Of a DNA stretch of 64,000 nt, positions 13,033 to 51,736 are shown in pieces. Below the pieces are notes generated by a model. That model searched no databases, was not told the origin of the DNA, and saw only the letters and a list, made by a program, of their open reading frames with translations. The stretch lies in the NCBI GenBank assembly GCA_947503305.1, contig CANNDF010000009.1, positions 993-64,992 on the forward strand, written 5' to 3'. The stretch comes from an uncultured Dokdonia sp. (lineage in GTDB: Bacteria; Bacteroidota; Bacteroidia; Flavobacteriales; Flavobacteriaceae). How positions within the stretch are numbered: position 1 is the stretch's first letter; each line of letters opens with the position of its first letter. The translations under genes and the position numbers were made by a program.

Positions 13033-14433
13033 CTACTGCCCTCTATAGAAAATGACTGTGCTTATTGTTTTAAGTACAATACTCAAATCCATAAATAGAT
13101 TACGATGTTTTATATAGTACAAGTCGTACTGTAATTTTTCTAGCGCATCGTCTTTAGAACTCCCATAACTTCCCATAACTTGAGCCCAGCCTGTTAGTCC
13201 TGGTTTTACGACATGACGTGTTTCATAAAAAGGAATTTGTTCGGATAAACCTCTCACGAATACAGGGCGTTCGGGTCTAGGACCTATAACACTCATTTCT
13301 CCAAATAATACATTAAAAAATTGAGGGATTTCATCCAGTCTAGAACGTCTTAAAAATTTTCCAAATCGCGTTATTCGTACATCATTTTTTTGTGCCCATA
13401 CAGCTCCATCTTTCTCCGCATCTTTAATCATCGTACGGAGCTTAATAATTTTAAACGCGCGACCATTACGGCCTATCCTGCTTTGCGAGTAAAATAAAGG
13501 GCCCCTATTTGCAAAAAGATTTCCTATAAAAATAAGTGGGGAAATAAAAATAAAAAACCCAATCCCTAACAGGGCCATTAGGATGTCAAATAGTCTATGA
13601 AAAAATTGATAAAACTTATTTTGATTACTTCTACTAAACGGGAAATAACGATAGAAATCTTTATCTACATACTGTACGGGTATACGCTGTGTAATCTCCT
13701 CATATACTTGCATGTACTCTCGTATCGGAAATCCAGATTCGAGTAAATTAATAAGTTGTAAGTACAATGGTTTTGATACTCCGTCACTATAATCACTAGC
13801 GACTACGATTTCAGATATGCCATTTTGTGAGACTGTTCTGGTCAACGCTTCTGTTGGAAATTCTATAACTTTATCTGAAATCTTTTGAGTATCAATAGTC
13901 CTCGTTTTATCCGTATTAATAAATCCTACAATTTTATAATTAGGGTCTGCGCCTTCCAGATTATTAATAATCTTTTTAATATCAAAAGAATCCCCTACAA
14001 CCAATACTCTTTTATAAAATCTAGGCGAAGAAATGAGAGAAATATATAGCCATCGCCAAAACAATATCCCAATAGTCATTGCCAAAAAGAAATAAATAAT
14101 CTGAAGTCTGTTTTCTGGAAGAACTGGCGTATAGAATGGAGTTAAAAGAAAAAATAGTGTAGTAACGGATACTGCAAGTAATGTGTTTTTTAAGACTATC
14201 TGAAACTTTGAGGCTTGCTGTAAATTATATAATTCAAATACAGTTCCAAAAACAGTAAGATATCCTCCCAGTACAATAGTCCATTCCCAATTTTGCTGAC
14301 TTATTGTAAAATAATCAAAATCAAAAAAATTGCCTATTAATTGCAGACATACAAACACAAAGACAAGATCCAATATACGAAGTAGGACTTTGCGCTCAGA
14401 AATTTCAAAATGAATATCTGGTAAGAGTGCCAT
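13033..14433 (-). CDS. Polyprenyl-phosphate glycosyl-1-phosphate transferase (WbaP/EpsL-type initiating sugar transferase)
   Basis: TM-rich N-terminal half. The C-terminal domain FKIIKLRTM..DEIPQFFNVLFGEMSVIGPRPERP is the bacterial sugar transferase signature. The start may be 14433 (MALLPD) or 14511. Confidence 0.85.
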   Translation of the reverse strand: MALLPDIHFEISERKVLLRILDLVFVFVCLQLIGNFFDFDYFTISQQNWEWTIVLGGYLTVFGTVFELYNLQQASKFQIVLKNTLLAVSVTTLFFLLTPFYTPVLPENRLQIIYFFLAMTIGILFWRWLYISLISSPRFYKRVLVVGDSFDIKKIINNLEGADPNYKIVGFINTDKTRTIDTQKISDKVIEFPTEALTRTVSQNGISEIVVASDYSDGVSKPLYLQLINLLESGFPIREYMQVYEEITQRIPVQYVDKDFYRYFPFSRSNQNKFYQFFHRLFDILMALLGIGFFIFISPLIFIGNLFANRGPLFYSQSRIGRNGRAFKIIKLRTMIKDAEKDGAVWAQKNDVRITRFGKFLRRSRLDEIPQFFNVLFGEMSVIGPRPERPVFVRGLSEQIPFYETRHVVKPGLTGWAQVMGSYGSSKDDALEKLQYDLYYIKHRNLFMDLSIVLKTISTVIFYRGQ

Positions 14434-14468
14434 AAATAGGTTAGTTCCTGTAAAGATATTACATTTTT

Positions 14469-15485
14469 TTAGGAGAGTATATCGCTCCAAAGGGTTTTGA
14501 CTTGAGTCCAATCAAATTTTTCTGCCTTTATTCTCGCATTTTTACTTATTGTAGACGCTAATACAGGGGTTTCTAGAAGTAATTGAATTTTTTCAGTAAA
14601 AGTTATAATATCTTTTGGAGGGCTTAATAGACCATCAATCTCATTTTCAATAAGAAATGGTATTCCCCCAACATCTGTAGATATAACGGGTAAGCCTATA
14701 GCCATGGCTTCAATGACACTAACGGGTGTATTATCAAAGTCTGTTGTACTTATAAATAGATCATGCGTAGTTCCCAATGCGATCCATTCTGCCTTTGATA
14801 ATTTTCCTGTAAATGTTACAGGGAGATTATTAGCTTTCGCGAAAGCGGTACACTCTTCATAACTCTCGTCCTTTCGAGGGCCTACCATTGTAAGTATTGC
14901 CTCAGGATATTTTTTGTGTAGTTCTTGTAACACTTTAAGGGCCATAATGGGATTATAAATGTGCGCAAAAGAGCGTACCCATAATAAAGTAGGAGTATAT
15001 TTTTCTCTTATTTTAAAAGGATAATTATCTATCTCTATACTATTAGGAATATGGATAACATTAGAAAAACCTTCTTCATTAAAAGCATTTAATAAATACC
15101 TTGATGGTGCAATATTTATTTTTGCATTATTAAAAAGTTTTTGAGCACTTTTTTGACTTCTTTTAATACGCATAGGTAAGTTACCGCCATGTAAAATAGG
15201 GATATAAGGAATTTTAAAAAGCCTACATAATTTTGCAACATATATCGCATACCAATAATTTGCTGTGCTATATGTATCTATCAGTACTGTATTTACCGTA
15301 TTCCTATTTGTAATTACCGACCATAACATATCTAATAATCGAAGCGCCTTATTACGTATATGTGAGGATACAATAACATGATAACCTTCTTCTTTGAGCG
15401 AATTACTCAAAGTATCAATAGTAGATACCGTATTACCTTTATGAGATAATGCGTTTCCTATGTATAGAAGACTTTTTCTTTTCAT
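14469..15485 (-). CDS. Glycosyltransferase, GT4-like (GT-B)
   Basis: N-terminus KSLLYIGNALSHKGN and C-terminal E-x7-E-like region VSVIEAMAIGLPVISTDVGGIPFLIENEIDG. Confidence 0.8.
   Translation of the reverse strand: MKRKSLLYIGNALSHKGNTVSTIDTLSNSLKEEGYHVIVSSHIRNKALRLLDMLWSVITNRNTVNTVLIDTYSTANYWYAIYVAKLCRLFKIPYIPILHGGNLPMRIKRSQKSAQKLFNNAKINIAPSRYLLNAFNEEGFSNVIHIPNSIEIDNYPFKIREKYTPTLLWVRSFAHIYNPIMALKVLQELHKKYPEAILTMVGPRKDESYEECTAFAKANNLPVTFTGKLSKAEWIALGTTHDLFISTTDFDNTPVSVIEAMAIGLPVISTDVGGIPFLIENEIDGLLSPPKDIITFTEKIQLLLETPVLASTISKNARIKAEKFDWTQVKTLWSDILS
14833..14846. repeat. Iterated palindrome, exact copy, inside the GT4 CDS
   Basis: Exact GCTTTCGCGAAAGC. It is read on the minus strand as A-F-A-K-A (CTAFAKANN). 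Confidence 0.95.
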
Positions 15486-16797
15486 GAACAACGTTTAGAA
15501 GGCATAGTGCGTATATAAATGCAGGAGCTGCAATACGCATAGACGAGTGATTGATCGTCAGAAACCAAAATCCTAATACAGAATAGAACAAATAATTACG
15601 TTTATTTTTAAAACGATAGATTAAAGGATATATTAATAAAATAGAAAGAGCAAGAATACCGGCAATACCGTGTTCTGACAATAACCTACTTATTTCATTA
15701 TGCGATGCAGCAGAGATTCCTAATTGTTCTTTGCGATATTCTTTTATCTTACCCACTCCTACTCCTGTTACTGGATTTGCATAAAAGGCCTCAAGTTCAG
15801 AATTAATCAATATACTTCTACCTGTCGACACATCTTCTTTAATTCTACCTGCGGCATCCTTATTTGCATATCGTTTGTCTATAAGTCCTTCTGTACGGGT
15901 AGAACTAAGAATCCATGTCAAACTTCCAGTAAAGACAATAATTAATGTTAATGCAGTAAGTCTGCCTCTCATTTTTGTTGAAGCTCCCTGAAAATAAATA
16001 AAAATAAACACAGCACTTATAATCACAGCAGTAAGTACGCCTCCTCTTGAAAAGGTAACTATAGCTCTATATCCTAATAAAGAAAGTAATCCTAAATTAA
16101 AAAGATTAACCGTAAGGTATTTTGTTTGAGTTACCAATTGTACAATGACCATAAAAATTCCTAATCCTAAAGCTGTAGCTACTTGATTAGGACCAAAACC
16201 TCCTGAAGTTGCAAAGTTAGAGCCCGTACCCGTTAATGCTTCTCTAGTATCTGGCGTATAAAAATATAAGTAGACTCCCATTGCTACTATAGGCATTAAT
16301 ATAGCCCAACAAACTTCTTGAAGCTTCTTATATGATATCTTCCTGTCTACACAATATAAAGCCGCTATCCCTAGACAAAAAGGACCACTTAAATTAAATA
16401 TCACCGCTTTTCTAAAGTCTGTAGCATAATCTAAGGTTATAGATGAAATTATAATTGCTGGTATGAGAAACAATAGATACAACCAATAAGGCCCTGATTT
16501 CCTGGAGGTTCCGCTAAGGAAAAGACCTAACAAAATAAAGAATATCACTCCATACTTACCTGCTTCATAAGCAAATGAAGCCGACGTCATTCTAAAAAAT
16601 ACTTCACCCCCAGCAATATAGCCCGCTGCAAGTAATGCCATGTCATTCCTATTTCCTTTTTTTAAAATTTCATAAAGAAAAAAAGCACAGGCTCCTAGAA
16701 AATATACCTTAGCAAAAGGCCTAAAAGCATACACAACTAATCCAATAATCACATGGATAATTAATAAAATGACGTATATGTTTTGTTTTTTAACCAA
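15439..16797 (-). CDS. O-antigen ligase / polymerase family (Wzy_C-type) integral membrane protein
   Basis: 452 aa with more than 10 predicted TM helices. It has a large loop and a SRGGVLTAVIIS..HNEISRLLSEHGIAG-type signature typical of the Wzy_C/WaaL family. Confidence 0.7.
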   Translation of the reverse strand: MVKKQNIYVILLIIHVIIGLVVYAFRPFAKVYFLGACAFFLYEILKKGNRNDMALLAAGYIAGGEVFFRMTSASFAYEAGKYGVIFFILLGLFLSGTSRKSGPYWLYLLFLIPAIIISSITLDYATDFRKAVIFNLSGPFCLGIAALYCVDRKISYKKLQEVCWAILMPIVAMGVYLYFYTPDTREALTGTGSNFATSGGFGPNQVATALGLGIFMVIVQLVTQTKYLTVNLFNLGLLSLLGYRAIVTFSRGGVLTAVIISAVFIFIYFQGASTKMRGRLTALTLIIVFTGSLTWILSSTRTEGLIDKRYANKDAAGRIKEDVSTGRSILINSELEAFYANPVTGVGVGKIKEYRKEQLGISAASHNEISRLLSEHGIAGILALSILLIYPLIYRFKNKRNYLFYSVLGFWFLTINHSSMRIAAPAFIYALCLLNVVHEKKKSSIHRKRIIS

Positions 16798-17866
16798 TAA
16801 CTTCTGAATATAGATTTACAATTTGCTTGAGAATACTTCCCGAACTATACGCACTTTTTACATGATTATGAAATGCCTTTTTATCCTGATCGTATTTTAT
16901 ACGATCATTCAGATAATCTATTATCCCTTTTGCAAACGCTTTCTTATTTCCATATTTTACAAAGGTACCATAATCCTTTACGACTAATGCGCATTGCCCT
17001 ACATCCGTTACAACAACAGCCAGTCTAGCTCTGCCATATTCTAATAATGCCATAGGCAGGCCTTCTGACGATGATGCTAAAACTCCTATATCACATTGTA
17101 GTAAAACGGATTCAGGTTGTGCCACTTTTCCGTAAATAAAAATGTGTTCTCCCAAATCATTCTCTTTAATAAATACTCGCAATGAATTGCTATAGGCATC
17201 TTGATAATCTTCTCCTATAAGATGAAGTGTAACTTCTGGAACTTCTTGAGAAACTAAGGCAAAACTTTCTAATAAAAAAGTATGCCCTTTTGGATTTTTG
17301 AGGTTTGCCAGACACACAATACGCTTTCCTTGAATACCGCCTATAGGTGTGCGTTTTATTTCTTGTCTATTATCAAATTCTACAAAATTTGATATATATA
17401 TTACTTTTTGACTATTGAGATGTTGTTCTGCCCAAATGAGTAATTCATCATTTACTGCAATAATTGTATCAAAATTATAGGAGCATATTTTAAGACTGTA
17501 TAAAGCTTTTTTACTAATAAGTATACTTGCTCCTAGATGGTTATGCCATATCAACTTAAGAGATGGATTGCTAAGTTTTAATAACGTTGCTATGAAATAT
17601 GAAGAACCATGAGCATGAATACAATCAATATGTTCCTTTTTGATATAACGACTTAATCGTAGTAATGCATTAATATCTAATGTGCGTTTACGTTTTAAAA
17701 ACAGATAACTTACATGAGTATCCAACATTTCTCGCAAATCCCCCTCAGCACGAGTCGTACAGAGATATGACCGTTCTATTTGAGGAGCAAGCATGTTTGC
17801 ATAATTTACCGCCATACGTTCTGCTCCTCCTAGTCGAAGACTGTCTATAAGCTGCATTACCCGCAT
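16790..17866 (-). CDS. Glycosyltransferase, GT4-like
   Basis: MRVMQLIDSLRLGGAERM N-terminus; SSSEGLPMALLEYGRARLAVVVTDVGQ in the C-terminal domain. Confidence 0.8.
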   Translation of the reverse strand: MRVMQLIDSLRLGGAERMAVNYANMLAPQIERSYLCTTRAEGDLREMLDTHVSYLFLKRKRTLDINALLRLSRYIKKEHIDCIHAHGSSYFIATLLKLSNPSLKLIWHNHLGASILISKKALYSLKICSYNFDTIIAVNDELLIWAEQHLNSQKVIYISNFVEFDNRQEIKRTPIGGIQGKRIVCLANLKNPKGHTFLLESFALVSQEVPEVTLHLIGEDYQDAYSNSLRVFIKENDLGEHIFIYGKVAQPESVLLQCDIGVLASSSEGLPMALLEYGRARLAVVVTDVGQCALVVKDYGTFVKYGNKKAFAKGIIDYLNDRIKYDQDKKAFHNHVKSAYSSGSILKQIVNLYSEVIG

Positions 17867-18972
17867 AAAAATTGTTTTATAGCTTCTTCAAACTGATCTA
17901 ATGTATATTGATGTGACCACTCTTGAGATGCATGAGACATCATTTGAAGTTTGCTAGGATTTGATATTGCTTTCGCGAAAGCAGTAACATCTTTCTCAAG
18001 ATCTAAACTTACTAATACCCCTCGTTTACCATGATCTAGCATCCAAGGCACACATGAAATTGAAGTTCCTAAAGGAATCACTCCCCAAAACATAGCCTCA
18101 GCAATAACTTTAGGCCAGCCTTCTGACTTTGAAGGTAAGATTAAAAAATGTGAATTTAAGTATGCCTCTCTAATGACAGTTGCATTTTGATTTCCATGTA
18201 ATGTTACATTATTTTCTAGCTTATGATTCTTAATGTATTTTTCAATAGCTTCTCTTTGGTTTCCTTCTCCATAGAAATCAAGAGAGATATCAATAGCAGA
18301 TTCTAGACATTTCTTTATAAATTCTAAGGCGTACATTGGACGTTTTCCTGGTGACAAACTTCCTACAAATATCATTTTGTAAGGTGCAACATACGTGAGT
18401 GTATTTATCTCTGGAATTGCCGATTTTTGGTATGATGCTGTAAAAAAGGAGGTGATATTTTTACTTTGACCTGGCCAATTACCATAGACAAGAACATTCA
18501 TGTTTTTTGTTAAAAATGTATTACTTAATATCTTTTTTTGCAACGTATAACTCCATGGTTGTTTTGCCTTTGGATCCCAATTTCCAGCATATTTTGCTGT
18601 TTTCAATTTGGATGGAAATACTATCTGAACAATAGCTCCCAATAATCCTATATTTCCTGGGCATCTTAAATGAATATGATCTGCATTACGCATCGCTTTA
18701 AAAAGACGATAGCATATCATAGGAATTTTATATACACATTGTAATAGCTTCTTTAATGAGAGTAGCGATAGTTGAGGTATTCTTGTAAAAATAACCTCTT
18801 TTGAATATGGCAGGTCAATAGGGTCTATATTGCCTTTTATTTGATGGGCTACGACTTCTACTGTGTCACTATGTTTTATCCATAAATTCATCTCTTTGAC
18901 ATAAGGCCCATATCCATAGTAATGACCGTCTTTCAATCTATGTTGCACATGTGTTATAATGAGTAATCGCAT
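17857..18972 (-). CDS. Glycosyltransferase, GT4-like
   Basis: 371 aa with the GT-B C-terminal motif LPSKSEGWPKVIAEAMFWGVIPLGTSISCVP. Confidence 0.7.
   Translation of the reverse strand: MRLLIITHVQHRLKDGHYYGYGPYVKEMNLWIKHSDTVEVVAHQIKGNIDPIDLPYSKEVIFTRIPQLSLLSLKKLLQCVYKIPMICYRLFKAMRNADHIHLRCPGNIGLLGAIVQIVFPSKLKTAKYAGNWDPKAKQPWSYTLQKKILSNTFLTKNMNVLVYGNWPGQSKNITSFFTASYQKSAIPEINTLTYVAPYKMIFVGSLSPGKRPMYALEFIKKCLESAIDISLDFYGEGNQREAIEKYIKNHKLENNVTLHGNQNATVIREAYLNSHFLILPSKSEGWPKVIAEAMFWGVIPLGTSISCVPWMLDHGKRGVLVSLDLEKDVTAFAKAISNPSKLQMMSHASQEWSHQYTLDQFEEAIKQFLCG
17968..17983. repeat. Iterated palindrome, exact core extended to a 16-mer, inside a GT CDS
   Basis: TGCTTTCGCGAAAGCA, read as A-F-A-K-A (TAFAKAIS). 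Confidence 0.95.
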
Positions 18973-18982
18973 ATACTATAGT

Positions 18983-19900
18983 TTATATGGTAAACCATCT
19001 CATAAAAGGGTTCCAAGCATTATAACCTATTTTTCGTGAAAGGAAAGGTTGTTTATCTATCTGCTCTTTAGGTATACAAAGCCAATTCTTATTTGTTTTC
19101 ACTTGAAAATCAGCTATATCTATTGGACTAATTCTTGTTTTATCTATATAGAAAGATATGTAATCTAAAGACTCCATAAGTTCAAACAATTTTTCTAACG
19201 TCACTCCACCCCGTTTTTCTAAATATCTTGCATTTGCTTCTAAAATAACAAATGGTTTATGTTTTTCAATTAATGACATAGCACCAAGTATGACTTGATA
19301 TTCAAACCCTTCTACATCTATTAAGATAGTAGATAGTGATTTTTCTTCTTTTAATGAATCATCTAAGCGAACTGCATCTACTTCTATCGTATTTTCTGTT
19401 ACCGCTTGAGCAACAAAACCAGATCCTGAATACGTTATCTCTGGTTCTTCAAAGAGTACCTTCCCAGAAGTATCACTAACTGCTTTATTAAATATCTCTA
19501 TTACAGAAGAGGGGTTTATTTCTTTTATTTTTTCCAAATAGTTATAATTAAAAGGTACTGGTTCATAAGCGTAAACCTTTTCTTTTTTACTAATATCGGC
19601 AAGCGATACAGTCTCTGTCCCTACATTTGCTCCTACCTCAACAATAGATCCAGGTTTAAGCATTTGGATTGCCTTTGAGAGAATAATATTTCGCCAGTCA
19701 AAATAGCCATGTATAAGAACTTTGAGTGCATGAAAATCACGTGTATTCCCTACAAAAACTCCTCCTGTAAACACCCGTGTATTAAAATCTCTAGCTAGGG
19801 TTTCACCTTCTTTTAAATTAATAAAAAAACTCCTAAACCGCTGTGCTAGGATCGGAGGCATAAAATAACATAAAAACCGTATCAGATATATTTTAAACAT
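18983..19900 (-). CDS. FkbM-family SAM-dependent methyltransferase
   Basis: 305 aa. The VEVGANVGTETVSLA glycine-rich motif and IDVEGFEYQVILG are typical of the FkbM family. Confidence 0.75.
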   Translation of the reverse strand: MFKIYLIRFLCYFMPPILAQRFRSFFINLKEGETLARDFNTRVFTGGVFVGNTRDFHALKVLIHGYFDWRNIILSKAIQMLKPGSIVEVGANVGTETVSLADISKKEKVYAYEPVPFNYNYLEKIKEINPSSVIEIFNKAVSDTSGKVLFEEPEITYSGSGFVAQAVTENTIEVDAVRLDDSLKEEKSLSTILIDVEGFEYQVILGAMSLIEKHKPFVILEANARYLEKRGGVTLEKLFELMESLDYISFYIDKTRISPIDIADFQVKTNKNWLCIPKEQIDKQPFLSRKIGYNAWNPFMRWFTI

Positions 19901-20969: not shown

Positions 20970-21044
20970 TGTTCTATAAAGTAGGTTAACGTCTAGTCAT
21001 ATCTGAAATTCTGATCAAGATACTGTTATTATTTATCAATATTT

Positions 21045-28450: not shown

Positions 28451-28457
28451 CTATTCT

Positions 28458-30422: not shown

Positions 30423-31112
30423 CTATTCCAGAAGCCTTTCTGCTTTTTCCCAATCTTCCAATGTATCAATATTTACATGGTTCTTTGAATCTGATTCAAC
30501 ATACGTAATTGTATTTCCATAAAAGGAATGTTGCTGTTGTATGACGTCTGTTTTTGTGATATAGATACCTCCATCTCTTATATATGCTGTTGGGAGTTCT
30601 TGCCTTCTCTTAATAATTTCTTTTTCTCCCGTAGCAATCTGTAGATTTCCTGAAGCATTAGGTTCAAAGACCCAGTGTGGGTTGTATTGATGTGGCACAG
30701 GAAGTACCGAGATCAATGTGTCTGTATGAGCATCCATAAACCTTTTAATAGCCTTATCGATATCATTTGCTGTTCTAAAAGGAGTTGTTACTTGTAACAA
30801 ACAGATTGCATCAAATTTTTCTCCAAGTTGCTCCATCTCTATAAGGGTATGTTGAACTACTTCTAAAGAACCAGCGCTATCGGTTGCCAGGTGATCAGGT
30901 CTCTTAAAAGGAACGCGTACTCCAAGCTGTTTAGCAATTTCTATGAGAGATGAGTCTTCAGAAGAAAAAACTACTGTTGTCAGGGATGTTGCTTTTAATG
31001 CCGCTTCAATAGTATATTGCATAAGGGGTTTTCCTCCAAGTATTTTTTTATTCTTATCTGGAATTCCTTTACTCCCTCCCCGAGCGGGTATAATACCTAA
31101 TATCTTCATCAA
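30423..31112 (-). CDS. neuA: CMP-nonulosonic acid synthetase (acylneuraminate cytidylyltransferase family)
   Basis: 229 aa. ILGIIPARGGSKGIPDKN is the CTP-transferase 3 signature. Confidence 0.85.
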   Translation of the reverse strand: MMKILGIIPARGGSKGIPDKNKKILGGKPLMQYTIEAALKATSLTTVVFSSEDSSLIEIAKQLGVRVPFKRPDHLATDSAGSLEVVQHTLIEMEQLGEKFDAICLLQVTTPFRTANDIDKAIKRFMDAHTDTLISVLPVPHQYNPHWVFEPNASGNLQIATGEKEIIKRRQELPTAYIRDGGIYITKTDVIQQQHSFYGNTITYVESDSKNHVNIDTLEDWEKAERLLE

Positions 31113-32269: not shown

Positions 32270-32271
32270 AA

Positions 32272-37184: not shown

Positions 37185-37193
37185 ATGGTTAAC

Positions 37194-38354: not shown

Positions 38355-38362
38355 TTTGCTTA

Positions 38363-39289: not shown

Positions 39290-39356
39290 AGGGTACTAAG
39301 ATAGCAAAACGTTTAAAGAAGAATAACAGTACTTATAAGTACGATATAATAGGAGA

Positions 39357-43693: not shown

Positions 43694-45423
43694 TATGTAC
43701 TGTATTGATGTGAGCCCCCATGGTATTTTACATATGTGTATGCTACATGAAATGCTAAAAATTGCGCATCCGGATGGTTCATTTCTGATTGCTCTTTAAT
43801 TGCATTTTTTAAAACAATATCTGATATATGTGGTAATAAATCTGCAATTACATCAGAATACCACGTTGCCATATCATCAGAAAACCAATCAGATTTCCCT
43901 AATAAACTTTTTACAGTAAGGTCCAACCCAAAAGATTTGAGCTGTTCTATCTGAATCCTATTTTTTATACGTCGGATCCATTTATTATTGCCAGGCCTAG
44001 GTAGTGTACGTGTCTTTGTTTTCTCGTAATAATATTTTCCAGCATTCGGATGATACTTTTCAATCCAGGCACTATACAGTTTATGTTTGTGGCGATAAGG
44101 CAATGGTAACGAAAAACAAAAATCAAGGACTTCCTGATATAAAAAAGGAGAAACCGATTCTGTATGCGGGTATATCAACCAATTACCATTCATTGTACCA
44201 TTATATACGTGATTATAAAACTGGGCTATCTCTACATTCTCATACATTGTACATTCTTGTTTCCATATAGAAGCTACATGACTTGAATACAAACCCTCAT
44301 GATAGCTTCGTTTTGATACAAAATCTTGATGTACCTCATAAGGATGCAGGGTATTACCTAAAACTGCATCACCCACTTGCCCAGAATGTAGTATCCCATA
44401 TTTACTAAAATCAAGCTTGTTATACATAGAAGGTATTTGGCTAGTAAGATGATAAAAAACCAATCCCGAATTTTGTTTGAAAACGGGTTCAATATTTTTT
44501 AAATGATCAAAATTCTCTATATAATATACATGATTTTTTAAGCTTAAATCTTTGGAAATATGATGTGCAATCGCATCATCCCAATACCCTTTTGTAGAAA
44601 AAGTAAATCTTCCTATGTTTTTATATCCTGTATTTGCACCTGCAATTACTGTCATTCTAGAATCTAGACCTCCACTCAAACCACATAAATGGTCATAACC
44701 ATATTCCAAATCTTTATCAAATTGTAAACGAATAGCTTGATCAAACACCTCTTGAAATCCATCTATAGCAGCATTAAAAGAAATATTGGAAGACCTTTGC
44801 TGTAACTTGTAATACTCATGCTTTTTAACCTGAGACCTTGTCACTTCAAGATAACATCCGGGAGTCAGCTTTTTAAGCTCTTTATACAATGTTCTATCTC
44901 CTAGAACATTTCCAAAACACAATAACGAATAATAAGCTTCTATATCTACTGTTAAGGAAGCTTCTTCCTGTTTGCAGGTATTGACTAGGAATTCAAAATT
45001 AGAACATCCACAAAAACCCTTGGATATATCTTCGGTATAGTAAATAGGTTTTGAGCTTGTAAGATTGGTATATATATATTGCGTTTGTGTATTCTTATCA
45101 TATATGATCATACTAAAGTCACCCCGCATTTCCTTGACAAAAGATGCTCCATATTGATTCCAAAGCTTTTCTAACAATACCTCAGTGCTATGCTGAGCAT
45201 GGCTATTTTTTAATTGCTGAAGATTAATAACCACCCCATCAATACAAAAAAAACAACTGTCAGATTCATAAAAGACTTTGTCGTCTTTAAACTTAGAATT
45301 AAGATTTCTAAAAATATGTACTCCAGCAGATACATCTCTATAAGAATTATATAAATATGCCTCGCCTTTTTCCAGATCTGGTGTAATATATTTAAACCCT
45401 TGGGAAGAAAACAATCCGAACAT
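43693..45423 (-). CDS. Asparagine synthase (AsnB)-family protein lacking the N-terminal Cys nucleophile
   Basis: 576 aa with the PP-loop motif LSGGLDSRMTV of the synthetase domain. The N-terminus is MFGLF where AsnB-type enzymes have MCG. Confidence 0.75.
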   Translation of the reverse strand: MFGLFSSQGFKYITPDLEKGEAYLYNSYRDVSAGVHIFRNLNSKFKDDKVFYESDSCFFCIDGVVINLQQLKNSHAQHSTEVLLEKLWNQYGASFVKEMRGDFSMIIYDKNTQTQYIYTNLTSSKPIYYTEDISKGFCGCSNFEFLVNTCKQEEASLTVDIEAYYSLLCFGNVLGDRTLYKELKKLTPGCYLEVTRSQVKKHEYYKLQQRSSNISFNAAIDGFQEVFDQAIRLQFDKDLEYGYDHLCGLSGGLDSRMTVIAGANTGYKNIGRFTFSTKGYWDDAIAHHISKDLSLKNHVYYIENFDHLKNIEPVFKQNSGLVFYHLTSQIPSMYNKLDFSKYGILHSGQVGDAVLGNTLHPYEVHQDFVSKRSYHEGLYSSHVASIWKQECTMYENVEIAQFYNHVYNGTMNGNWLIYPHTESVSPFLYQEVLDFCFSLPLPYRHKHKLYSAWIEKYHPNAGKYYYEKTKTRTLPRPGNNKWIRRIKNRIQIEQLKSFGLDLTVKSLLGKSDWFSDDMATWYSDVIADLLPHISDIVLKNAIKEQSEMNHPDAQFLAFHVAYTYVKYHGGSHQYST

Positions 45424-45440: not shown

Positions 45441-46727
45441 TTAAGTCTCTATTGAAAAGTTATCTATTGTACAATCAAGTATTACCTCTTGTGCAGATCT
45501 ATTAATTTTACCCGTTTTCCAATAATCACCAGGTAAAACATTAATCATACTAAATTTTTCTTTCACATGTAAAAAATCTGAAGGAGATGTAGATCCCAAA
45601 CTAGAGAAAACTTTTAATGAGTAAATACCCCCTCTTAAGGCCAATCTAGATAAATTCCAATCAAAGTATCCATTACTATGAATTTTATCTAGTACTATAC
45701 CGCTTTCAATAGATGAAAGTCCAGAAATTAAATTTCCATATGGATCATTTATACTAAAACCCCAGAAAAATTCTTTTGTTTTAATATCTATTTTTGATTT
45801 ATAGTAAATTCGAATTGTAGCATCTTCACCAGATATCAAGGCATTTACTAATTTCCCTTTAGAATCAATTAAATCAACATTAGTAAATGAAAAAATTCCA
45901 TTAAACTTGTTGTCTTCATCATTTTTATCACTATCCGTAACAGAAAGATAGTCCTGTACTACATCTTCTATTTCTCCTGTAGAATATATCCCGCCGTTTT
46001 TAAGTAAAATCCCTCTTGTACAGAGTGATTTTACAGCCGCCATATTATGACTTACAAATAATATAGTACGTCCCCCATCTTTTGAGATATCCTGCATCTT
46101 ACCAATGGCCTTTTTCTGGAACTCGGCATCTCCTACAGCTAGAACTTCATCTATCACCAAAATTTCAGGTTCTAAGTGTGCCGCTACAGCAAAGGCAAGT
46201 CGTACCCGCATCCCACTACTATAGCGTTTTACTGGTGTATCTATATAGCCTTCACATCCTGAAAAGTCTACAATCTCATCAAGTTTGGAAGCAATTTCGG
46301 CTTTATTCATTCCCAGAATAGCACCGTTTAAAAATATATTTTCTTTCCCAGTAAGCTCAGGATGAAAGCCGGTCCCTACTTCCAATAAAGAAGCAATACG
46401 GCCTCTTGTTTTTATAGAACCCGTAGTAGGACTCGTGACTCTGGATAATATCTTAAGTAAAGTAGACTTCCCTGCTCCATTTTTTCCTATAATGCCTAAT
46501 ACTTCTCCTCGTTTTACCTCAAAATTGATATCCTGAAGCGCCCATACATAATCATCATTTGCCCGCACACTCCTATCATTTGCAGTCCCTACTTTAAGAA
46601 ATGGATCTTCTTTACCTCGTACCAAATGCCACCAACGATTCAAATCATCTTTAAGAGATCCAGAACCCACCAGACCTAGTCGATACTGCTTAGAAATATT
46701 TGTTGCTTTTAATATGATATCACTCAT
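45441..46727 (-). CDS. wzt: Polysaccharide-export ABC transporter ATP-binding protein with a C-terminal extra domain (Wzt-like)
   Basis: Walker A GKNGAGKST, signature YSSGMRVRLAF and Walker B ILVIDEVLAVGD in the first ~250 aa. An extra beta-rich domain of about 170 aa follows (FSFTNVDLIDSKGK..ATIRIYYKS). Confidence 0.85.
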   Translation of the reverse strand: MSDIILKATNISKQYRLGLVGSGSLKDDLNRWWHLVRGKEDPFLKVGTANDRSVRANDDYVWALQDINFEVKRGEVLGIIGKNGAGKSTLLKILSRVTSPTTGSIKTRGRIASLLEVGTGFHPELTGKENIFLNGAILGMNKAEIASKLDEIVDFSGCEGYIDTPVKRYSSGMRVRLAFAVAAHLEPEILVIDEVLAVGDAEFQKKAIGKMQDISKDGGRTILFVSHNMAAVKSLCTRGILLKNGGIYSTGEIEDVVQDYLSVTDSDKNDEDNKFNGIFSFTNVDLIDSKGKLVNALISGEDATIRIYYKSKIDIKTKEFFWGFSINDPYGNLISGLSSIESGIVLDKIHSNGYFDWNLSRLALRGGIYSLKVFSSLGSTSPSDFLHVKEKFSMINVLPGDYWKTGKINRSAQEVILDCTIDNFSIET

Positions 46728-47565
46728 CGTTTCTAAATGGACAACTTTTAAGAAGCCCCTTTTGTAAAGTGGTTATGATTTCCTTTTGAGGCACTAATTG
46801 ATCAGGGGACAGTACTTCAAAAAGAGATTGTAAATGACCATTCTCAAAGGTAGTTAAATCCTTTGAGTTTAAGATTTTCATGGGATCTATCCCTTGATAT
46901 GGAGGGATCCCTACCGATTCAAAATAATCTCTGAATTTGATATCATCCCCATATAGTTTATCCGACCATCGCACCCATACTGCTGGAATACCATAAGCAT
47001 GAGCAACAATAAGTCCATGCAAGGATGAAGACAAAATATAATTACATTTATAAATTGCATCTGTGGTTGCCTCTACGTCATTTGTTTTTAAATCTATGCA
47101 GACCTGTCCTTGCTGTAGTTTTTTATCCTCAAAAAGCTCATAATCTGCATAATGAGGAATCCAACCAAATTCAAATTCTTTATTACCTTTAGGTGTATAA
47201 AATTGCGGAAGCAATAACGCAGGGTCCCCATAATTTTCGGGACAATTATATCCAAGAGCCAAAAGTCTTTTTCGGGTCTGAGGTCCGCGTACTGCATAAA
47301 ATGTAGCAGGAGCTACCTGTTGATCTTCTGTAATAATACCACTCCCCCATACATGGCTATGCTTAGTTGCCTGTGCCAAAATACTTCCAATAGCCAGATA
47401 ATGCTTTTTAGATTGGAACCATTTTATTTTTTTAGGATGTATCCATTGAATACGCTTTTGCGAAAGCCTCTCCGTAAGATAAGCACTTAAGAGATCGCCA
47501 TAGTTTTCTTGCGACCACCCTTGTAGACGAATATTACTCCAAAAAAACAAACGTATTGTATCCAA
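46720..47565 (-). CDS. Polysaccharide pyruvyl transferase family protein
   Basis: 281 aa with NYGDLLSAYL near the N-terminus and SSSLHGLIVAHAYGIPAVWV, as in the CsaB/WcaK-type pyruvyl transferase family. Confidence 0.75.
   Translation of the reverse strand: MDTIRLFFWSNIRLQGWSQENYGDLLSAYLTERLSQKRIQWIHPKKIKWFQSKKHYLAIGSILAQATKHSHVWGSGIITEDQQVAPATFYAVRGPQTRKRLLALGYNCPENYGDPALLLPQFYTPKGNKEFEFGWIPHYADYELFEDKKLQQGQVCIDLKTNDVEATTDAIYKCNYILSSSLHGLIVAHAYGIPAVWVRWSDKLYGDDIKFRDYFESVGIPPYQGIDPMKILNSKDLTTFENGHLQSLFEVLSPDQLVPQKEIITTLQKGLLKSCPFRNDE
47454..47467. repeat. Iterated palindrome, 13/14 copy, inside the pyruvyl transferase CDS
   Basis: GCTTTTGCGAAAGC (one C>T change), read as L-S-Q-K-R. Confidence 0.8.
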
Positions 47566-47583: not shown

Positions 47584-48459
47584 CTATACTGTATCAATAA
47601 ATCGCTTCTCTGTACGATTAAAAATAATTAATCCCACAAAAAATAATACGACAGCAATCCCAGCGGTATATCCTAATCCTAACCAACTAAAAGAAGTGAC
47701 ATCAGGGTCTTCAAACAATAAGTATCTAAACCCTTCTATAATTTGAGTAATAGGATTTCCTTCTACTAACCAGACATATTGTGGTTGTTTCTCACGCATC
47801 ACTGCCAGAGGATAAGGCACTGCAGATACATACATGAGCAACTGAGTCGCAAAACCTACTAAAATCGTTAAATCTCGATATTTTGTAGTCATTGCCGAAA
47901 TAATCATCCCCAGACCTAATCCAAATAAAGCCGCTATCAAAAAATAAAAAGGAGCTAAAAAAACAAATACACTAGGACGCACCCCTTCTCCTTTTACAAA
48001 TACGAAGTATGCATAAAAAGCTATCAAAATTAATAACTGTATTGCTAATCGAAAAAGGTTTGATACCGACTTAGACAATGGTACAATCACTCTCGGAAAG
48101 TATACTTTTCCGAACATACTCTGGTTGGCCCGAAACGTATTGGATGTCGTATTTAGACAGATCTTAAAATAACTCCACATGGTAATCCCTGCGAGGTTAA
48201 ATAAAAAGGCAGGAACAATACCCGTATTTATAGAAGCGATATTATTAAAAACTAAGGTAAAAATGACTGAGGTAAAAAGTGGCTGTATAAAAAACCATAA
48301 CGGTCCTAATATGGTTTGTTTATAGACAGTAACAATATCGCGTTTTACAAACAACCACAGTAAATCTCTATACCGCCATATCTCTTTAAAATTGAGATCG
48401 ATATATTTCCCTTTAGGGGTAATCTCATATAACCAATCTGATTTTTCTGATGTATTCAA
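47584..48459 (-). CDS. wzm: Polysaccharide-export ABC-2 type permease (Wzm-like)
   Basis: 291 aa with 6 predicted TM helices and the ABC-2 family N-terminal block EIWRYRDLLWLFVKRDIVTVYKQTILGPLW. Confidence 0.85.
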   Translation of the reverse strand: MNTSEKSDWLYEITPKGKYIDLNFKEIWRYRDLLWLFVKRDIVTVYKQTILGPLWFFIQPLFTSVIFTLVFNNIASINTGIVPAFLFNLAGITMWSYFKICLNTTSNTFRANQSMFGKVYFPRVIVPLSKSVSNLFRLAIQLLILIAFYAYFVFVKGEGVRPSVFVFLAPFYFLIAALFGLGLGMIISAMTTKYRDLTILVGFATQLLMYVSAVPYPLAVMREKQPQYVWLVEGNPITQIIEGFRYLLFEDPDVTSFSWLGLGYTAGIAVVLFFVGLIIFNRTEKRFIDTV

Positions 48460-48485
48460 TACAATAGTTTTTAAACAGCTACAGA

Positions 48486-50948
48486 TTACCTTTTAAGTCG
48501 TTTTTGGATCTTACGTCGTAAACGTTTGATAATCCCAGATCGTTTTATATCCTCATGATATCCATTACTATAAGCTCCATAACCATAGCCGTATCCATAA
48601 CCGTATCCATAGCCATAGCCATATCTGCCTTTGGTTCTAAAGTAATTAAGTACAAAACTTACATTATTGATCTCTCCCTTACGATACTTTTCGTTGATAA
48701 GCCCTAACATGGCTTTTTTGGTATACCCCTGGCGTATCATATAAATCGTGGCATCCGCATAAGGAATAATTTCTAATGCATCTGCCACTAGTCCTACAGG
48801 AGGAGTATCCAGAATTATGTAATCATATTTCTTCTTAAGTTCGTCCATAAATACTCCCATTTGATCACTGATCAATAACTCAGAAGGATTGGGAGGAATA
48901 GGACCTGCAAGAATAATATCCAGAAAAGGCAAACTACTCGTTTGTGTAATTTCATCTAATGATGATTGCCCTATCAAATAATTGACAACCCCGCTATCAT
49001 TATGCAGGTCAAAATCACCAAATATTTTAGGTTTCCGTAAATCCAACCCTACAAGCACTGTTTTCTTTTCGCTTAAAGCGAAAACAGAAGCAATATTCAT
49101 AGAAGTAAACGTTTTTCCTTCTCCACTTACAGAAGAGGTAACCAATACTGTTTTTGCGCCCTCTACTTTGTTAGATTTATAAATAAATTGAAGGCTGGAA
49201 CGTATGCCTCTAAAAGCCTCGGCAATTGAAGACCGGGGTTTATCTTTTACAATCAAATTACTCTTATATGCACTCTTACCTACAACTCCTAAAACAGGGA
49301 TCTTAGATAAAGATTTAACCTCTTCAGGATTTCCAATTTTGGTGTCAAAAAACACTAGTAAAAAGACAAGCACCAAAGGAATCAAACCACCTACCAGAGA
49401 TGCAATCACATAATTGAGACGCATATTAGGACCCACGGGGCCATTACCAACATTTTTTGCAGGATCAATAAAGAGAATATCAGAAACATTAGAAGCCTTA
49501 ATAATTTTAGCCTCACTCTTTTTTGCCTCATAAAGATTATACGCCGCTTGACTTAATTTAAACCGTCGCTCTATTTCAGAAAGCTTTTGTTCTTCGGCAG
49601 GATATCGTCTTAGCTCCCTTTCGGCCTGAGCAATATCATTATTAATTTGTCGTATTTCACTATTGATAATCTCCTTAGAAGAACGTATGTTTTCTAACAA
49701 TACCTCTTTCTCAGCATTGATAGTACGGTCCAATTCTTTAAAGATAGGATTGGACTCCTTTGCAGAATACCCATAAGTGCTCCTTCGTACAGAGAGATCA
49801 ACAATTCTACTTACACTCTGAGAAATACTAGGTTCCTGAATACCCGCAACAGAAGGCGCAGGAACATTGGTATAATCTTCACGGGTCAACAAATAATTTT
49901 CTAATTGATTATAATACGTAAGTTTTTGATTTGCCCCCTCTTTCTGTAAATCATACGATTGTAATCGATTACTAAGTAGTTTAGATCCCCCTTTTAAAGC
50001 AACATCAATATTGTTATTTTTAAAAGTATTAAGCTCATCCAATACACTCTGTAATTCGGTATTCCTTTTTGTAAGACTCGTATCAATAAAAGCAATCGTA
50101 TTTGTAGCAAATAAGTTTTTACGCTCCAGTTGATCTCTTTCCCGTACACGTACAGAAGCATTCAGATAATCAATAAGCCTGAGCTTATTGGTCCCAGACA
50201 TAGCCAATTCTAGAATAGAAGAACCTTGAGGCTTCTGAGCAATATTTACACGATTATATGACTTTACGGTACTATTAAAATTGTTTGTACTTATAAAATA
50301 CTCTTGTCCTAAAGCTCCTGATCTTCCTCCAGGTAATAGTACCCCTTTTAAAAATGGGAGATTGATAGAATCCCCTACCTTAAACGTTTGCTTAAATTCC
50401 TCAGTAGGTCCTGGCACTACCGAATATCGTAACGTATTATAGTTAAACAAAGAGACATTCCCTCCTGAAAAAGGAATTTTGAATTCAAAATTTTTATCCC
50501 CAAGATCTGTGATTGTGATACGCCTCTGATGTAGCTGAGGATAACGATCATCTAATTTTAATGCAAAAGGAGTATACCCATATACATCTTCTAGATGGTA
50601 TTTACCTTGCTTTAAATAGCTTATATAATACTGAAGCTCTTTAACAACTTTCTCTGTATGAGTTCTGGATTTAAACAAGACAATATTAGTCTGAACCTTA
50701 TCTGTAGTCCCTCCCCAATTAAAAATCAAACTTGTATTTCCAGTAAATAATGGGTTTTGATCATCCTTAATAGAGATCATATTACTCATTAAGTAGATAG
50801 GTTGTTTTTTTAGGTTTTTATAATAAGCAATAGAATATGCAATCCCTAAACTTATTATAAACAAAGGCCAGAAACTTAAGAGTTTTATAATAAACCCTTT
50901 GAAATCAAAAAAATTACCCGATTCTTTTATTTCAAACTCTTCTTCCAT
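48486..50948 (-). CDS. wzc: Polysaccharide co-polymerase / tyrosine autokinase (Wzc-like, PCP-2a with BY-kinase domain)
   Basis: 820 aa. It has an N-terminal TM helix, a long coiled periplasmic region and a second TM helix. The kinase domain has Walker A SSVSGEGKTF, Walker A' VLVGLDLRKP and Walker B YIILDTPPVG, followed by a C-terminal Tyr cluster. Confidence 0.9.
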   Translation of the reverse strand: MEEEFEIKESGNFFDFKGFIIKLLSFWPLFIISLGIAYSIAYYKNLKKQPIYLMSNMISIKDDQNPLFTGNTSLIFNWGGTTDKVQTNIVLFKSRTHTEKVVKELQYYISYLKQGKYHLEDVYGYTPFALKLDDRYPQLHQRRITITDLGDKNFEFKIPFSGGNVSLFNYNTLRYSVVPGPTEEFKQTFKVGDSINLPFLKGVLLPGGRSGALGQEYFISTNNFNSTVKSYNRVNIAQKPQGSSILELAMSGTNKLRLIDYLNASVRVRERDQLERKNLFATNTIAFIDTSLTKRNTELQSVLDELNTFKNNNIDVALKGGSKLLSNRLQSYDLQKEGANQKLTYYNQLENYLLTREDYTNVPAPSVAGIQEPSISQSVSRIVDLSVRRSTYGYSAKESNPIFKELDRTINAEKEVLLENIRSSKEIINSEIRQINNDIAQAERELRRYPAEEQKLSEIERRFKLSQAAYNLYEAKKSEAKIIKASNVSDILFIDPAKNVGNGPVGPNMRLNYVIASLVGGLIPLVLVFLLVFFDTKIGNPEEVKSLSKIPVLGVVGKSAYKSNLIVKDKPRSSIAEAFRGIRSSLQFIYKSNKVEGAKTVLVTSSVSGEGKTFTSMNIASVFALSEKKTVLVGLDLRKPKIFGDFDLHNDSGVVNYLIGQSSLDEITQTSSLPFLDIILAGPIPPNPSELLISDQMGVFMDELKKKYDYIILDTPPVGLVADALEIIPYADATIYMIRQGYTKKAMLGLINEKYRKGEINNVSFVLNYFRTKGRYGYGYGYGYGYGYGYGAYSNGYHEDIKRSGIIKRLRRKIQKRLKR
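48576..48623 (-). repeat. Imperfect hexanucleotide repeat encoding (Tyr-Gly)x8
   Basis: The coding strand reads TATGGC TATGGC TATGGA TACGGT TATGGA TACGGC TATGGT TATGGA, by my own reverse complement. Confidence 0.9.
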
Positions 50949-51736
50949 TATAGTCGTATGAATAATAAAATAACACTCGTAAGAGCTGTAACTGTAGTAA
51001 GAATAGTTCTAAAAGTATCTAACCCAGTAGTACCTGCGCCCACACTTTTTTGAGGAAGTGGATTTACTAAAATTAAATCATTAGGCTTTACATAATAATA
51101 AGGAGATTGCATGGCATCGAGTCTTGTCAAATCCACATGGTGTACTTTTTGCCCTCCAGGATATTGCCTTACAATAACAATATCGGTAAGATCACCCGTC
51201 ACCGGAACTCCACCAGAATTTGCAATAGCATCCATAAGCGAGAGTTTCTCCGTAAGCTCTGTTCTCACACCCGAACTCCCTATCTCACCTGCAATAGTAT
51301 ACCGAATACCAGCCAGCTTAACAGTTACAAAAATATTTGCCTCCTCATTAAAATAATCTTTAAGCAAACGATCTTCAATAATTTTTCGTACTTCTTCAGT
51401 CGTACGCCCTAGTACATTAACCTCTCCTAACGTAGGCATTCTAATGTTTCCATGGCTATCAATGGCAAAACCATCATAATAATACCCTTCATCCAGAGAT
51501 GTACTAGTAGCACCTATGGGATTAAAAATCTCGACAAGGTTTTGATCCAGTGCCTTAACACGTATACTTAGCACATCACTCACCTGGAGCCGATAAGGTT
51601 GTTGTTGTAATTGTAAGCTTATTAGACTATCGTTTGCAGCCTCAGTTTCCTGAAGATACGTAAGTCGTTCTGTAGGTATACAAGAAGCCATGCTCACAAA
51701 AATAACGAGCAATAGAAGCAAAACAGGATATCTCAT
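50948..51736 (-). CDS. wza: Polysaccharide export outer-membrane protein (Wza-like: Poly_export plus SLBB domains)
   Basis: 262 aa with a lipoprotein-like signal MRYPVLLLLLVIFVSMASC. The PYRLQVSDVLSIRV and NGNIRMPTLGEVNVLGRT blocks are typical of Wza/KpsD-type exporters. Confidence 0.9.
   Translation of the reverse strand: MRYPVLLLLLVIFVSMASCIPTERLTYLQETEAANDSLISLQLQQQPYRLQVSDVLSIRVKALDQNLVEIFNPIGATSTSLDEGYYYDGFAIDSHGNIRMPTLGEVNVLGRTTEEVRKIIEDRLLKDYFNEEANIFVTVKLAGIRYTIAGEIGSSGVRTELTEKLSLMDAIANSGGVPVTGDLTDIVIVRQYPGGQKVHHVDLTRLDAMQSPYYYVKPNDLILVNPLPQKSVGAGTTGLDTFRTILTTVTALTSVILLFIRL

Follow-up and report, generated by a model that had tools for sequence, protein, structure and literature searches.

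In marine Flavobacteriaceae, susceptibility to phages, attachment to particles, and carbon export are shaped by surface glycans, and the routes by which these are assembled are almost unstudied. A 38.7-kb glycan locus of an uncultured Dokdonia sp. (GenBank assembly GCA_947503305.1, contig CANNDF010000009.1; positions 13033–51736 of the 64-kb stretch analyzed here, hereafter the window) raises the question of how one locus can combine Wza and the tyrosine autokinase Wzc with a Wzm/Wzt ATP-binding cassette (ABC) exporter and a Wzy_C-family membrane protein, with no Wzx flippase. The original prediction, made from the sequence alone, had described the locus as a mixture of two textbook pathways and had offered three readings: an ABC-transporter-dependent polymer ligated by the Wzy_C-family protein and passed through Wza/Wzc, two glycans encoded in one fused locus, or a flippase encoded elsewhere. 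The mixture is real insofar as Wza/Wzc beside Wzm/Wzt is truly nontextbook, but the Wzy_C protein and the WbaP-type primer are not hallmarks of the Wzy-dependent route. Among the three readings, the first, refined to include a branch between ligation and export through Wza, is the best supported, and the other two are weakened. The locus is best classed as an O-antigen-type, ABC-transporter-dependent one, with a conserved, noncanonical head made of Wza and a bacterial tyrosine (BY) kinase.

Pathway class of the locus

The open reading frame (ORF) list and the junction table agree with the predicted layout of 34 consecutive, tightly packed genes, all on the minus strand (to which all coordinates below refer unless indicated otherwise). 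The widest intergenic gaps are 75 nt (20970–21044) and 67 nt (39290–39356), and overlaps occur at 19 of the 33 junctions; those of −43 and −53 nt near the 3′ end are artifacts of over-long ORF starts. Annotation with Pfam and NCBIfam profiles also recovered the predicted parts list, that is, eight GT4 (Glycos_transf_1) and seven GT2 glycosyltransferases (GTs), one of the latter weak (36162–37184), a WecF-like and a GT-B-like protein, a WbaP-type transferase, Wza, Wzc, Wzm, Wzt, and the Wzy_C protein. The predicted lack of a flippase held as well: no match to the MOP/Wzx families (Polysacc_synt/MurJ/MOP) was found in any ORF of at least 100 amino acids (aa) of the window. The multitransmembrane (multi-TM) proteins of the locus are limited to the Wzy_C protein, an MBOAT protein, Wzm, and the primer transferase, and because each of them is already assigned, a cryptic non-MOP flippase within the locus is ruled out.

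The genes that are present form a set in which the absence of Wzx is expected and poses no paradox. Wzm (47584–48459; ABC2_membrane, 64.9 bits) is an ABC-2 permease with six hydrophobic segments, 87% identical in Dokdonia ponticola. Wzt (45441–46727) joins an ABC ATPase (ABC_tran, 83.7 bits) to a C-terminal carbohydrate-binding domain (Wzt_C, 44.6 bits; cut-off 30.4); its top match in the Protein Data Bank (PDB) is the full-length Wzt of Aquifex (8DKU/7K2T, E-value 1.6e-67), against only 8e-29 for 8TSI, labeled in the table as "ABC transporter ATP-binding protein" and nothing more, which we take to be a KpsT entry. Initiation would be carried out by a WbaP-class PHPT (polyprenyl-phosphate hexose-1-phosphate transferase; 13033–14511; Bac_transf, 209.9 bits; TIGR03025, 347 bits, cut-off 295.6), which is the sole primer of the locus, so that initiation of the WecA type (polyprenyl-phosphate N-acetylhexosamine-1-phosphate transferase, PNPT) does not apply. 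This is no argument against an ABC mechanism, because PHPT-initiated ABC pathways are documented: in Myxococcus xanthus, the O-antigen is lost on deletion of wbaP, Wzm/Wzt is needed, and WaaL has a Wzy_C domain (PMC7484181), and the S-layer glycan systems of Geobacillus and Paenibacillus comprise WsaP, Wzm/Wzt, WsaB, a methyl cap, and an AsnB homologue (PMC2943079). A WbaP-type primer, Wzm/Wzt, and a Wzy_C ligase thus make up a known and coherent ABC set; the Pfam family Wzy_C includes WaaL ligases, which the ABC O-antigen route needs too.

To compare the locus with its relatives, we used two stretches of D. ponticola (L001 and L009) and loci from a Logan assembly (L006), Marixanthomonas (L007), Flavobacterium (L008), Dokdonia (L010), and Leeuwenhoekiella (L011). 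A scan of genome contigs seeded with Wzc yielded one close relative, D. ponticola, whose equivalent locus spans ∼38.6 kb on one contig and was compared through L001 and L009, which lie on either side of its middle 11.8 kb; for wider statistics, we relied on protein look-ups and one metagenome scan. No Wzx was found in those parts of the D. ponticola contig that were examined. Across genera, the ATPase domain of Wzt is 74–82% identical, whereas its binding domain is only 25–52% identical and shows no detectable similarity in D. ponticola. The latter species, with its unrelated binding domain, has other genes directly after wzt, whereas in the close relative L093 (a 12.5-kb contig), the binding domain is 82% identical and the downstream genes, from AsnB through 36162–37184, are shared at 72–88%. 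The binding domain therefore covaries with the variable region, a pattern like that of Escherichia coli O8/O9a, in which the C-terminal domain of Wzt determines substrate specificity (Cuthbertson et al. 2005, as summarized in PMC2943079). This covariation suggests that the C-terminal domain reads a type-specific chain end and that the Wzm/Wzt exporter probably serves the product of the locus itself. Several features of an O9a-type ABC pathway are thus present in the locus: Wzm/Wzt, a Wzt_C domain that tracks the glycan type, and, as far as the window shows, no need for Wzx or Wzy.

E. coli O8/O9a and Klebsiella pneumoniae O12 resemble the locus in pairing Wzm with a Wzt that bears a Wzt_C domain, its ATPase being conserved while the binding domain diverges by glycan type, and in having a ligase-type Wzy_C protein but no Wzx/Wzy; in Dokdonia, methyltransferases and an ulosonic-acid module are the candidates for capping. 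They differ from it in using WecA instead of a WbaP-class PHPT and in lacking the head formed here by an outer membrane polysaccharide export (OPX) protein and a BY-kinase of the polysaccharide copolymerase 2a (PCP-2a) class. The O-antigen genes of M. xanthus are dispersed, and we know of no Wza/Wzc associated with that pathway. It shares with the present locus the PHPT primer, Wzm/Wzt, and a Wzy_C-domain WaaL (PMC7484181). The slg clusters of Geobacillus stearothermophilus and Paenibacillus alvei (PMC2943079) are alike in their WbaP homologue, Wzm/Wzt, Wzy_C-domain transferase, and AsnB homologue, in their tight single-strand packing, and in an adaptor-plus-repeat design with a methyl cap, the adaptor and the cap being putative in Dokdonia; however, their hosts are Gram-positive, the acceptor is a protein, and there is no outer-membrane export pair.

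The Wzy_C-family protein

The Wzy_C-family protein (15439–16797; Wzy_C, 51.8 bits, cut-off 31.7) has at least nine TM segments and is 437 aa long according to the database gene call (P0121), not 452. A PDB search with the single sequence gave no match, and a profile built from a family of 48 members gave only one, the ligase WaaL (7TPG, E-value 4.6e-4). Comparison of an AlphaFold (AF2) model (mean pLDDT 83.6) by Foldseek pointed to the same protein, chain 7TPG_B being the sole significant match (E-value 2.4e-4, TM-score 0.45–0.48), with RodA next. The protein thus has a Wzy_C domain, the build of a compact polytopic membrane protein, and a WaaL fold. Three residues that are invariant in the family, R236, R312, and H351, lie opposite R191, R265, and H313 of 7TPG when counted along the profile alignment; we take the latter to be the essential residues of WaaL. 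WaaL is described as having pyrophosphate-binding arginines and a proposed catalytic histidine, which O-oligosaccharyltransferases (O-OTases) share (PMC12800693).

Sequence conservation bears on the same question. The Wzy_C protein is 84%, 58%, and 62% identical in L009, L010, and L011, respectively, compared with 36–78% for the surrounding GTs, and it and the primer transferase (86%, 69%, and 60% in the same loci) are the two most conserved genes of the tail block. Its homologues are 55–85% identical across Dokdonia and ∼61% identical in Leeuwenhoekiella and Flavimarina, the closest named relatives being all Dokdonia. Serotype polymerases are usually less conserved than the genes next to them, which is the opposite of what is observed here. 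High conservation and a PDB match restricted to WaaL thus suit a ligase better than a serotype polymerase, and from fold, profile, and conservation taken together, we consider it quite probable that the protein is a ligase-type enzyme.

The Wza/Wzc head and its possible client

Wza (50948–51736; Poly_export, 55 bits, and SLBB_2) is a short OPX lipoprotein of 262 aa, with the lipobox MASC and a C-terminal hydrophobic segment (residues 242–260). It matches a class of OPX proteins of at most 280 aa that bear a terminal helix and lack a coupled beta-barrel; this class is found mostly in Bacteroidetes and has been proposed to work in a Wza-like manner (PMC9601211). Wzc (48486–50948; TIGR01007, 149 bits, cut-off 108) is a PCP-2a BY tyrosine autokinase of 820 aa, 80% identical to the Wzc of D. 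ponticola. Two TM segments lie on either side of a periplasmic domain of ∼480 aa, and the Walker A (SGEGKT), A′ (LVGLDLR), and B (IILDTPP) motifs are present; the C-terminus (48486–48600) consists of a near-perfect Gly-Tyr dipeptide repeated eight times, GYGYGYGYGYGYGYGY, and then of a Lys/Arg-rich tail. Of the components of a group 1-type system, the locus therefore has the OPX protein Wza and the PCP-2a Wzc, with its Walker motifs and tyrosine cluster, and lacks Wzx and Wzb, no phosphatase family match having been found among the window ORFs.

Gene-by-gene comparison with the related loci revealed a conserved head, a variable center, and a conserved tail. The head (wza, wzc, wzm, a pyruvyl-transferase-like gene, and wzt) shows 44–87% identity to its counterparts in D. 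ponticola, L006, Marixanthomonas, and L013, except that Marixanthomonas has no pyruvyl-transferase-like gene; the middle, from AsnB through a DUF1574-like gene, is variable; and the tail, from 26127–27020 through the primer transferase, is conserved in D. ponticola, L010, and L011. Such a layout is typical of a single serotype-determining locus, and the two independently varying, merely adjacent loci that the original prediction had envisaged as a counterexample were not seen. Wza and Wzc themselves do not vary with the variable region.

The four genes wza, wzc, wzm, and wzt sit side by side in the same orientation in D. ponticola, L006, Marixanthomonas, and Leeuwenhoekiella palythoae. In the last species, the upstream neighbor is RecQ instead of ABC-F, which indicates that the module stays intact in other chromosomal surroundings. 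With a Wzt alignment as seed, a metagenome scan gave 80 loci, 30 of which were informative (at least 6 kb of upstream sequence). A co-oriented Wzc homologue lies upstream of Wzm-Wzt in 13 of these 30, which are also 13 of the 20 with a GC content below 0.43; the Wzc identities go down to 25–33%, and several loci have Wzm directly after Wzc. In the other 17 informative loci, upstream Wzc is lacking. Seven unannotated multi-TM ORFs of related loci were scanned as well and comprise three acyltransferases, one Na/H exchanger, and three proteins without family match; the remaining multi-TM ORFs are Wzy_C orthologues, MBOATs, and other annotated proteins, and no MOP flippase was found among the multi-TM ORFs of related loci with Wzc-Wzm-Wzt or with the conserved tail. 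To judge from these sequences, the Wza/Wzc–Wzm/Wzt association is a recurrent module and not a one-off fusion. We found no description of this gene combination in the searchable literature on Flavobacteriia, Bacteroidota, and Dokdonia.

We give about even chances to a scheme in which the locus encodes one ABC-transporter-dependent surface heteropolysaccharide pathway and Wza/Wzc take a share of the polymer as capsule. In the cytoplasm, the WbaP-class transferase, whose homology is strong, would prime undecaprenyl phosphate (Und-P); the conserved 3′ GTs would probably make a conserved linker or adaptor, and the GTs of the variable region would then make the type-specific chain, with up to 17 GTs in all. 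The amidotransferase, the methyltransferases, and the sialic-acid-like module with its candidate transferase may modify the chain and would probably cap it. Again on strong homology, Wzm/Wzt would export the finished chain, whose type-specific end could be read by the Wzt C-terminal domain, as suggested by covariation. In the periplasm, the MBOAT module may acylate the chain, and the Wzy_C protein would move it, as a WaaL-type ligase, onto lipid A-core. ABC export followed by WaaL-type ligation would make both Wzx and Wzy unnecessary. Lastly, gene order being the sole guide, Wza and Wzc would most likely bring part of this Und-PP-linked polymer to the cell surface as capsule, with Wzc replacing the KpsE-type partner of classical ABC capsules and adding a control by tyrosine phosphorylation. 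It is possible, though we hold this more tentatively, that O-antigen-type Wzm/Wzt pairs with a cap-reading domain, in Flavobacteriaceae and other low-GC Bacteroidota, may pass finished Und-PP polymer to a conduit of BY-kinase PCP-2a (Wzc) and short OPX (Wza) proteins, the polymer being split between ligation by WaaL, yielding lipopolysaccharide (LPS), and export by Wza, yielding capsule.

Three known capsule systems resemble this scheme in part. The group 1 (K30) system of E. coli, with Wza-Wzb-Wzc and K-LPS, is alike in that an OPX lipoprotein and a PCP-2a protein with a tyrosine cluster head the locus and in its PHPT primer, and there, one polymer is split between capsule and lipid A-core, as we propose here. 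However, group 1 needs Wzx and Wzy, whereas here no Wzx was found, the single Wzy_C protein is better explained as a ligase, and an ABC exporter is present; moreover, the window has no Wzb, and its Wza is the short Bacteroidetes form. The group 2 KpsMT-KpsE-KpsD system is conceptually alike, an ABC exporter being coupled to a PCP along with an OPX protein for capsule export. Here, in contrast, the ATPase is far nearer to Wzt than to KpsT (if 8TSI is indeed KpsT), the PCP is a PCP-2a BY-kinase and not a PCP-3, the 262-aa OPX protein has no GfcC domain, and neither the KpsS/KpsC linker enzymes nor any Capsule_synth match was found in the locus; on these grounds, a group 2 capsule is ruled out. 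Within the Flavobacteriaceae, Capnocytophaga canimorsus makes a Wza-dependent capsule and a WaaL-dependent lipooligosaccharide (LOS) that share one set of sugar units (PMC5156936), which counts in favor of a shared polymer, but that system is Wzx/Wzy dependent and its wza-wzz lie away from the biosynthetic cluster.

Several observations weigh against the scheme of one polymer divided between ligation and Wza export. To our knowledge, no characterized ABC-dependent system has a BY-kinase PCP-2a. No WbdD-like kinase-methyltransferase was found in the locus, which has only candidates for the cap and the chain terminator; the WaaL match of the Wzy_C protein is modest (TM-score ∼0.45), with no solved Wzy polymerase among the PDB matches for comparison, and strong conservation could likewise occur in a polymerase that acts on a conserved repeat unit. 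The two export pairs are separable, since Flavobacterium L008 has Wzm-Wzt but no Wza/Wzc within 10 kb upstream, and the wza-wzz of C. canimorsus, unlinked from the Wzx/Wzy cluster that they serve (PMC5156936), make physical linkage an unreliable guide in this family. A Wzx/Wzy locus elsewhere in the genome could be the real client of Wza/Wzc. The locus would then be an ordinary ABC O-antigen locus, with wza-wzc exporting a different, Wzx/Wzy-dependent capsule or acting only in regulation through the tyrosine kinase, and the linkage would reflect shared regulation or history instead of a shared substrate. Both separable cases fit this explanation, as do the 17 informative metagenome loci without upstream Wzc and the failure of Wza and Wzc to covary with the variable region. 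We nevertheless find it rather unlikely, because the four genes keep their adjacency, common orientation, and close spacing in three genera whose flanks differ, and likewise in loci with a Wzc of only 25–33% identity, because the multi-TM ORFs scanned in such loci include no flippase, and because the wza-wzc and wzc-wzm junctions measure −1 nt and 26 nt in the window, with no promoter-like box seen between these genes.

A fusion of two glycan loci appears less likely still. The 3′ block, with the Wzy_C protein as a true Wzy, would make a conserved repeat polysaccharide, exported by Wza/Wzc once a Wzx encoded elsewhere has flipped it; a second, ABC-dependent glycan would come from Wzm/Wzt and the variable region. 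The separate conservation of the 5′ and 3′ blocks around a variable middle is compatible with this idea, the Pfam family Wzy_C cannot tell ligases from polymerases, and the polymerase of a conserved polymer would itself be conserved, as is the case for WzyE of the enterobacterial common antigen. Such a division would, however, deprive the ABC-dependent half of its own primer and ligase in the locus; it also calls for a Wzx that is found neither in the 64 kb nor in the examined parts of the D. ponticola contig, and for a polymerase whose only PDB relative is WaaL and which, opposite to the usual case, is more conserved than the GTs around it. The least probable of the alternatives, in our view, is that the Wzy_C protein is an O-OTase that transfers the glycan onto surface proteins, in the style of the Geobacillus and Paenibacillus S-layers, and not onto lipid A-core. 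The WbaP-type primer, Wzm/Wzt, Wzy_C, methyltransferases, and AsnB do mirror the slg clusters (PMC2943079), O-OTases have the WaaL fold with the proposed catalytic His and Arg residues (PMC12800693), and a GT-B protein of the locus is weakly linked to a nonulosonic-acid (NulO) transferase family of Tannerella forsythia glycoproteins. On the other hand, neither a target protein gene, nor a TPR partner, nor an extra C-terminal domain is evident, and the protein is, with its 437 aa, as compact as WaaL. As far as is known, general O-glycosylation in Bacteroidota also relies on a short oligosaccharide flipped by Wzx.

All the parts are familiar, most of the apparent paradox dissolves, and what stays is the recurrent Wza/Wzc–Wzm/Wzt module, a testable departure from the textbook classes. 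If Wza/Wzc do export an ABC-transported polymer, the locus combines modules in a way that falls outside the textbook Wzy-, ABC-, and synthase-dependent schemes, and the three-pathway classification, together with the tools that treat ABC and Wza/Wzc as exclusive, would misfile a common type of Bacteroidota locus. A BY-kinase would then be shown to control an ABC-dependent pathway, and the succession of head, variable region, and tail would supply a framework ready for serotyping these bacteria. Otherwise, we are dealing with an ordinary O-antigen cluster beside an unrelated export pair.

Other genes of the locus and its surroundings

The remaining gene of the head, between wzm and wzt, encodes a pyruvyl-transferase-like protein (46720–47565; PS_pyruv_trans, 56.6 bits, matching only the C-terminal half of the model) and is kept at this position in L001, L006, L013, and L093; the same slot of Marixanthomonas (L007, 9596–9958) holds an unrelated small gene of the 23S_rRNA_IVP family. 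The middle region opens with an AsnB-like glutamine amidotransferase (43693–45423; GATase_7 and Asn_synthase), a candidate for sugar-acid amidation that also follows wzt in L006, L007, and L093, and with a WecF-like (GT56-like) candidate (42488–43693; PRK02797, E-value 1.4e-10, well below cut-off; weak Glyco_trans_4_2). The Pfam-assigned GTs of the variable region come next: GT2 (41542–42495), GT2 (40541–41545), GT4 (39357–40544), GT2 (38363–39289), GT4 (37194–38354), the weak GT2-like protein already mentioned, GT2/Glyco_transf_7C (35101–36162), and GT4 (33989–35113). The GTs of this interval (33989–42495) are common to L093 at 72–88% identity, are found in part in L006, and are essentially absent from the stretches of D. 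ponticola that were compared.

Downstream of them lie a S-adenosylmethionine-dependent methyltransferase (33286–33951; Methyltransf_23, 24.8 bits, below cut-off), a candidate for modification or capping, and three genes that form a nonulosonic (sialic-acid-like) sugar module (30423–33267): a NeuB-type synthase (32272–33267; Pfam NeuB, 227.6 bits; NCBIfam NeuB below cut-off), a NeuC-type hydrolyzing epimerase (31109–32269; Epimerase_2, 228.4 bits; TIGR03568 NeuC, 385.7 bits, above cut-off), and a CMP-sugar synthetase (30423–31112; CTP_transf_3; NCBIfam PseF below cut-off). Directly after its wzt, D. ponticola (L001, 15625–18674) encodes a CMP-transferase, a NeuB-family synthase, a methyltransferase-like protein, and a small HAD phosphatase, a set reminiscent of a KDN-type nonulosonic-acid pathway and unlike the NeuC/NeuB/CMP-synthetase set that the window encodes. 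The vicinity of Wzt also holds NeuB homologues in the metagenome loci L013, L016, L054, L055, and L091.

A putative periplasmic O-acylation module follows (26127–30400). It comprises a DUF1574-like protein (29420–30400; DUF1574 below cut-off), an MBOAT (27017–28450; MBOAT, 106 bits; DltB model, 153 bits, below cut-off), and, on either side of the latter gene, two proteins of ∼300 aa (28458–29420 and 26127–27020) that have no Pfam or NCBIfam match even at E = 1. The three non-MBOAT proteins have a single N-terminal hydrophobic segment each. MBOAT and 26127–27020 are conserved in L009 and L010, the latter protein at 66% and 37% identity in Dokdonia.

The tail continues with the GT-B protein (24738–26123), 71% identical in D. 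ponticola, a candidate nonulosonic-acid transferase on account of a weak, partial match to NCBIfam BFO_1060 (E-value 3.7e-7, 29.6 bits, cut-off 200), which belongs to a group of T. forsythia transferases for pseudaminic and legionaminic acid (Pse/Leg) derivatives (PMC5420450). The GT block proper is made of a GT4 (23590–24741), a GT2 of 513 aa (22052–23593), a GT2 (21045–22055), a GT4 (19893–20969) found elsewhere only in D. ponticola (61%), an FkbM methyltransferase (18983–19900) missing in L009, L010, and L011, and two further GT4 (17857–18972 and 16790–17866). The order and sequence of this block (16790–24741) are kept in D. ponticola L009 (56–78%), Dokdonia L010, and Leeuwenhoekiella L011. 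A last GT4 (14469–15491; Glycos_transf_1, 88.4 bits), conserved at 52–67%, separates the ligase-like gene from the primer gene. Candidates for capping are thus the FkbM and Methyltransf_23 methyltransferases, the NeuB/NeuC/CMP-synthetase module, and the weak BFO_1060-like transferase.

The divergent intergenic region upstream of wza (51737–51899) carries a Bacteroidetes-type −7 box, TATATTTG (TAnnTTTG type; first base 51763), 20–27 nt ahead of the wza ATG. No TAnnTTTG box lies within the 75-, 67-, or 37-nt internal gaps, which would fit one long transcript without proving it; as the motif occurs inside genes at chance frequency, the box at 51763 is only a candidate promoter. Scans for sigma-70 promoters and intrinsic terminators, two models not made for Bacteroidetes promoters, did not exceed shuffle expectation, and no tRNA or Rfam element was found in the window. 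Two plus-strand ORFs of ∼100 aa, 32908–33225 (inside neuB) and 51107–51412 (inside wza), are enclosed by minus-strand genes and are most likely spurious.

The GC content stays between 0.30 and 0.38 along the whole stretch, with no compositional island, and both flanks show synteny with Dokdonia contigs (ABC-F at one end; Lnb, sucC, PrmA, an S8 peptidase, and TIM at the other). Taken with the identity of Wzc and the named relatives of the Wzy_C protein, this synteny marks the source as a Dokdonia-like flavobacterium of the Flavobacteriaceae. A recently acquired horizontal island is ruled out by this even composition across the locus and by the synteny of the flanks with D. ponticola. The gene convergent with the primer-transferase end (11770–13029, plus strand) encodes the Bacteroidota lipoprotein N-acyltransferase Lnb, as it does in two Dokdonia loci, and Leeuwenhoekiella L011 has at the syntenic position a classical Lnt (13766–15370, minus strand; LNT_N and CN_hydrolase); two unrelated enzymes of the same function thus occupy the same spot, adjoining a locus whose Wza is a lipoprotein. 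Just outside the other end, between a methyltransferase and the ABC ATPase, lies a 240-aa GT2 (54602–55324, minus strand) whose matches to AglJ/PpgS/ArnC-like polyprenyl-phosphate glycosyltransferases are all below cut-off; the corresponding interval of D. ponticola (L001) and of L006 lacks it, so that it looks like an insertion in this genome. Farther on, SecA (57552–60932, plus strand) is 1126 aa long, with an enlarged DEAD and preprotein-binding region, and its D. ponticola orthologue has 1136 aa.

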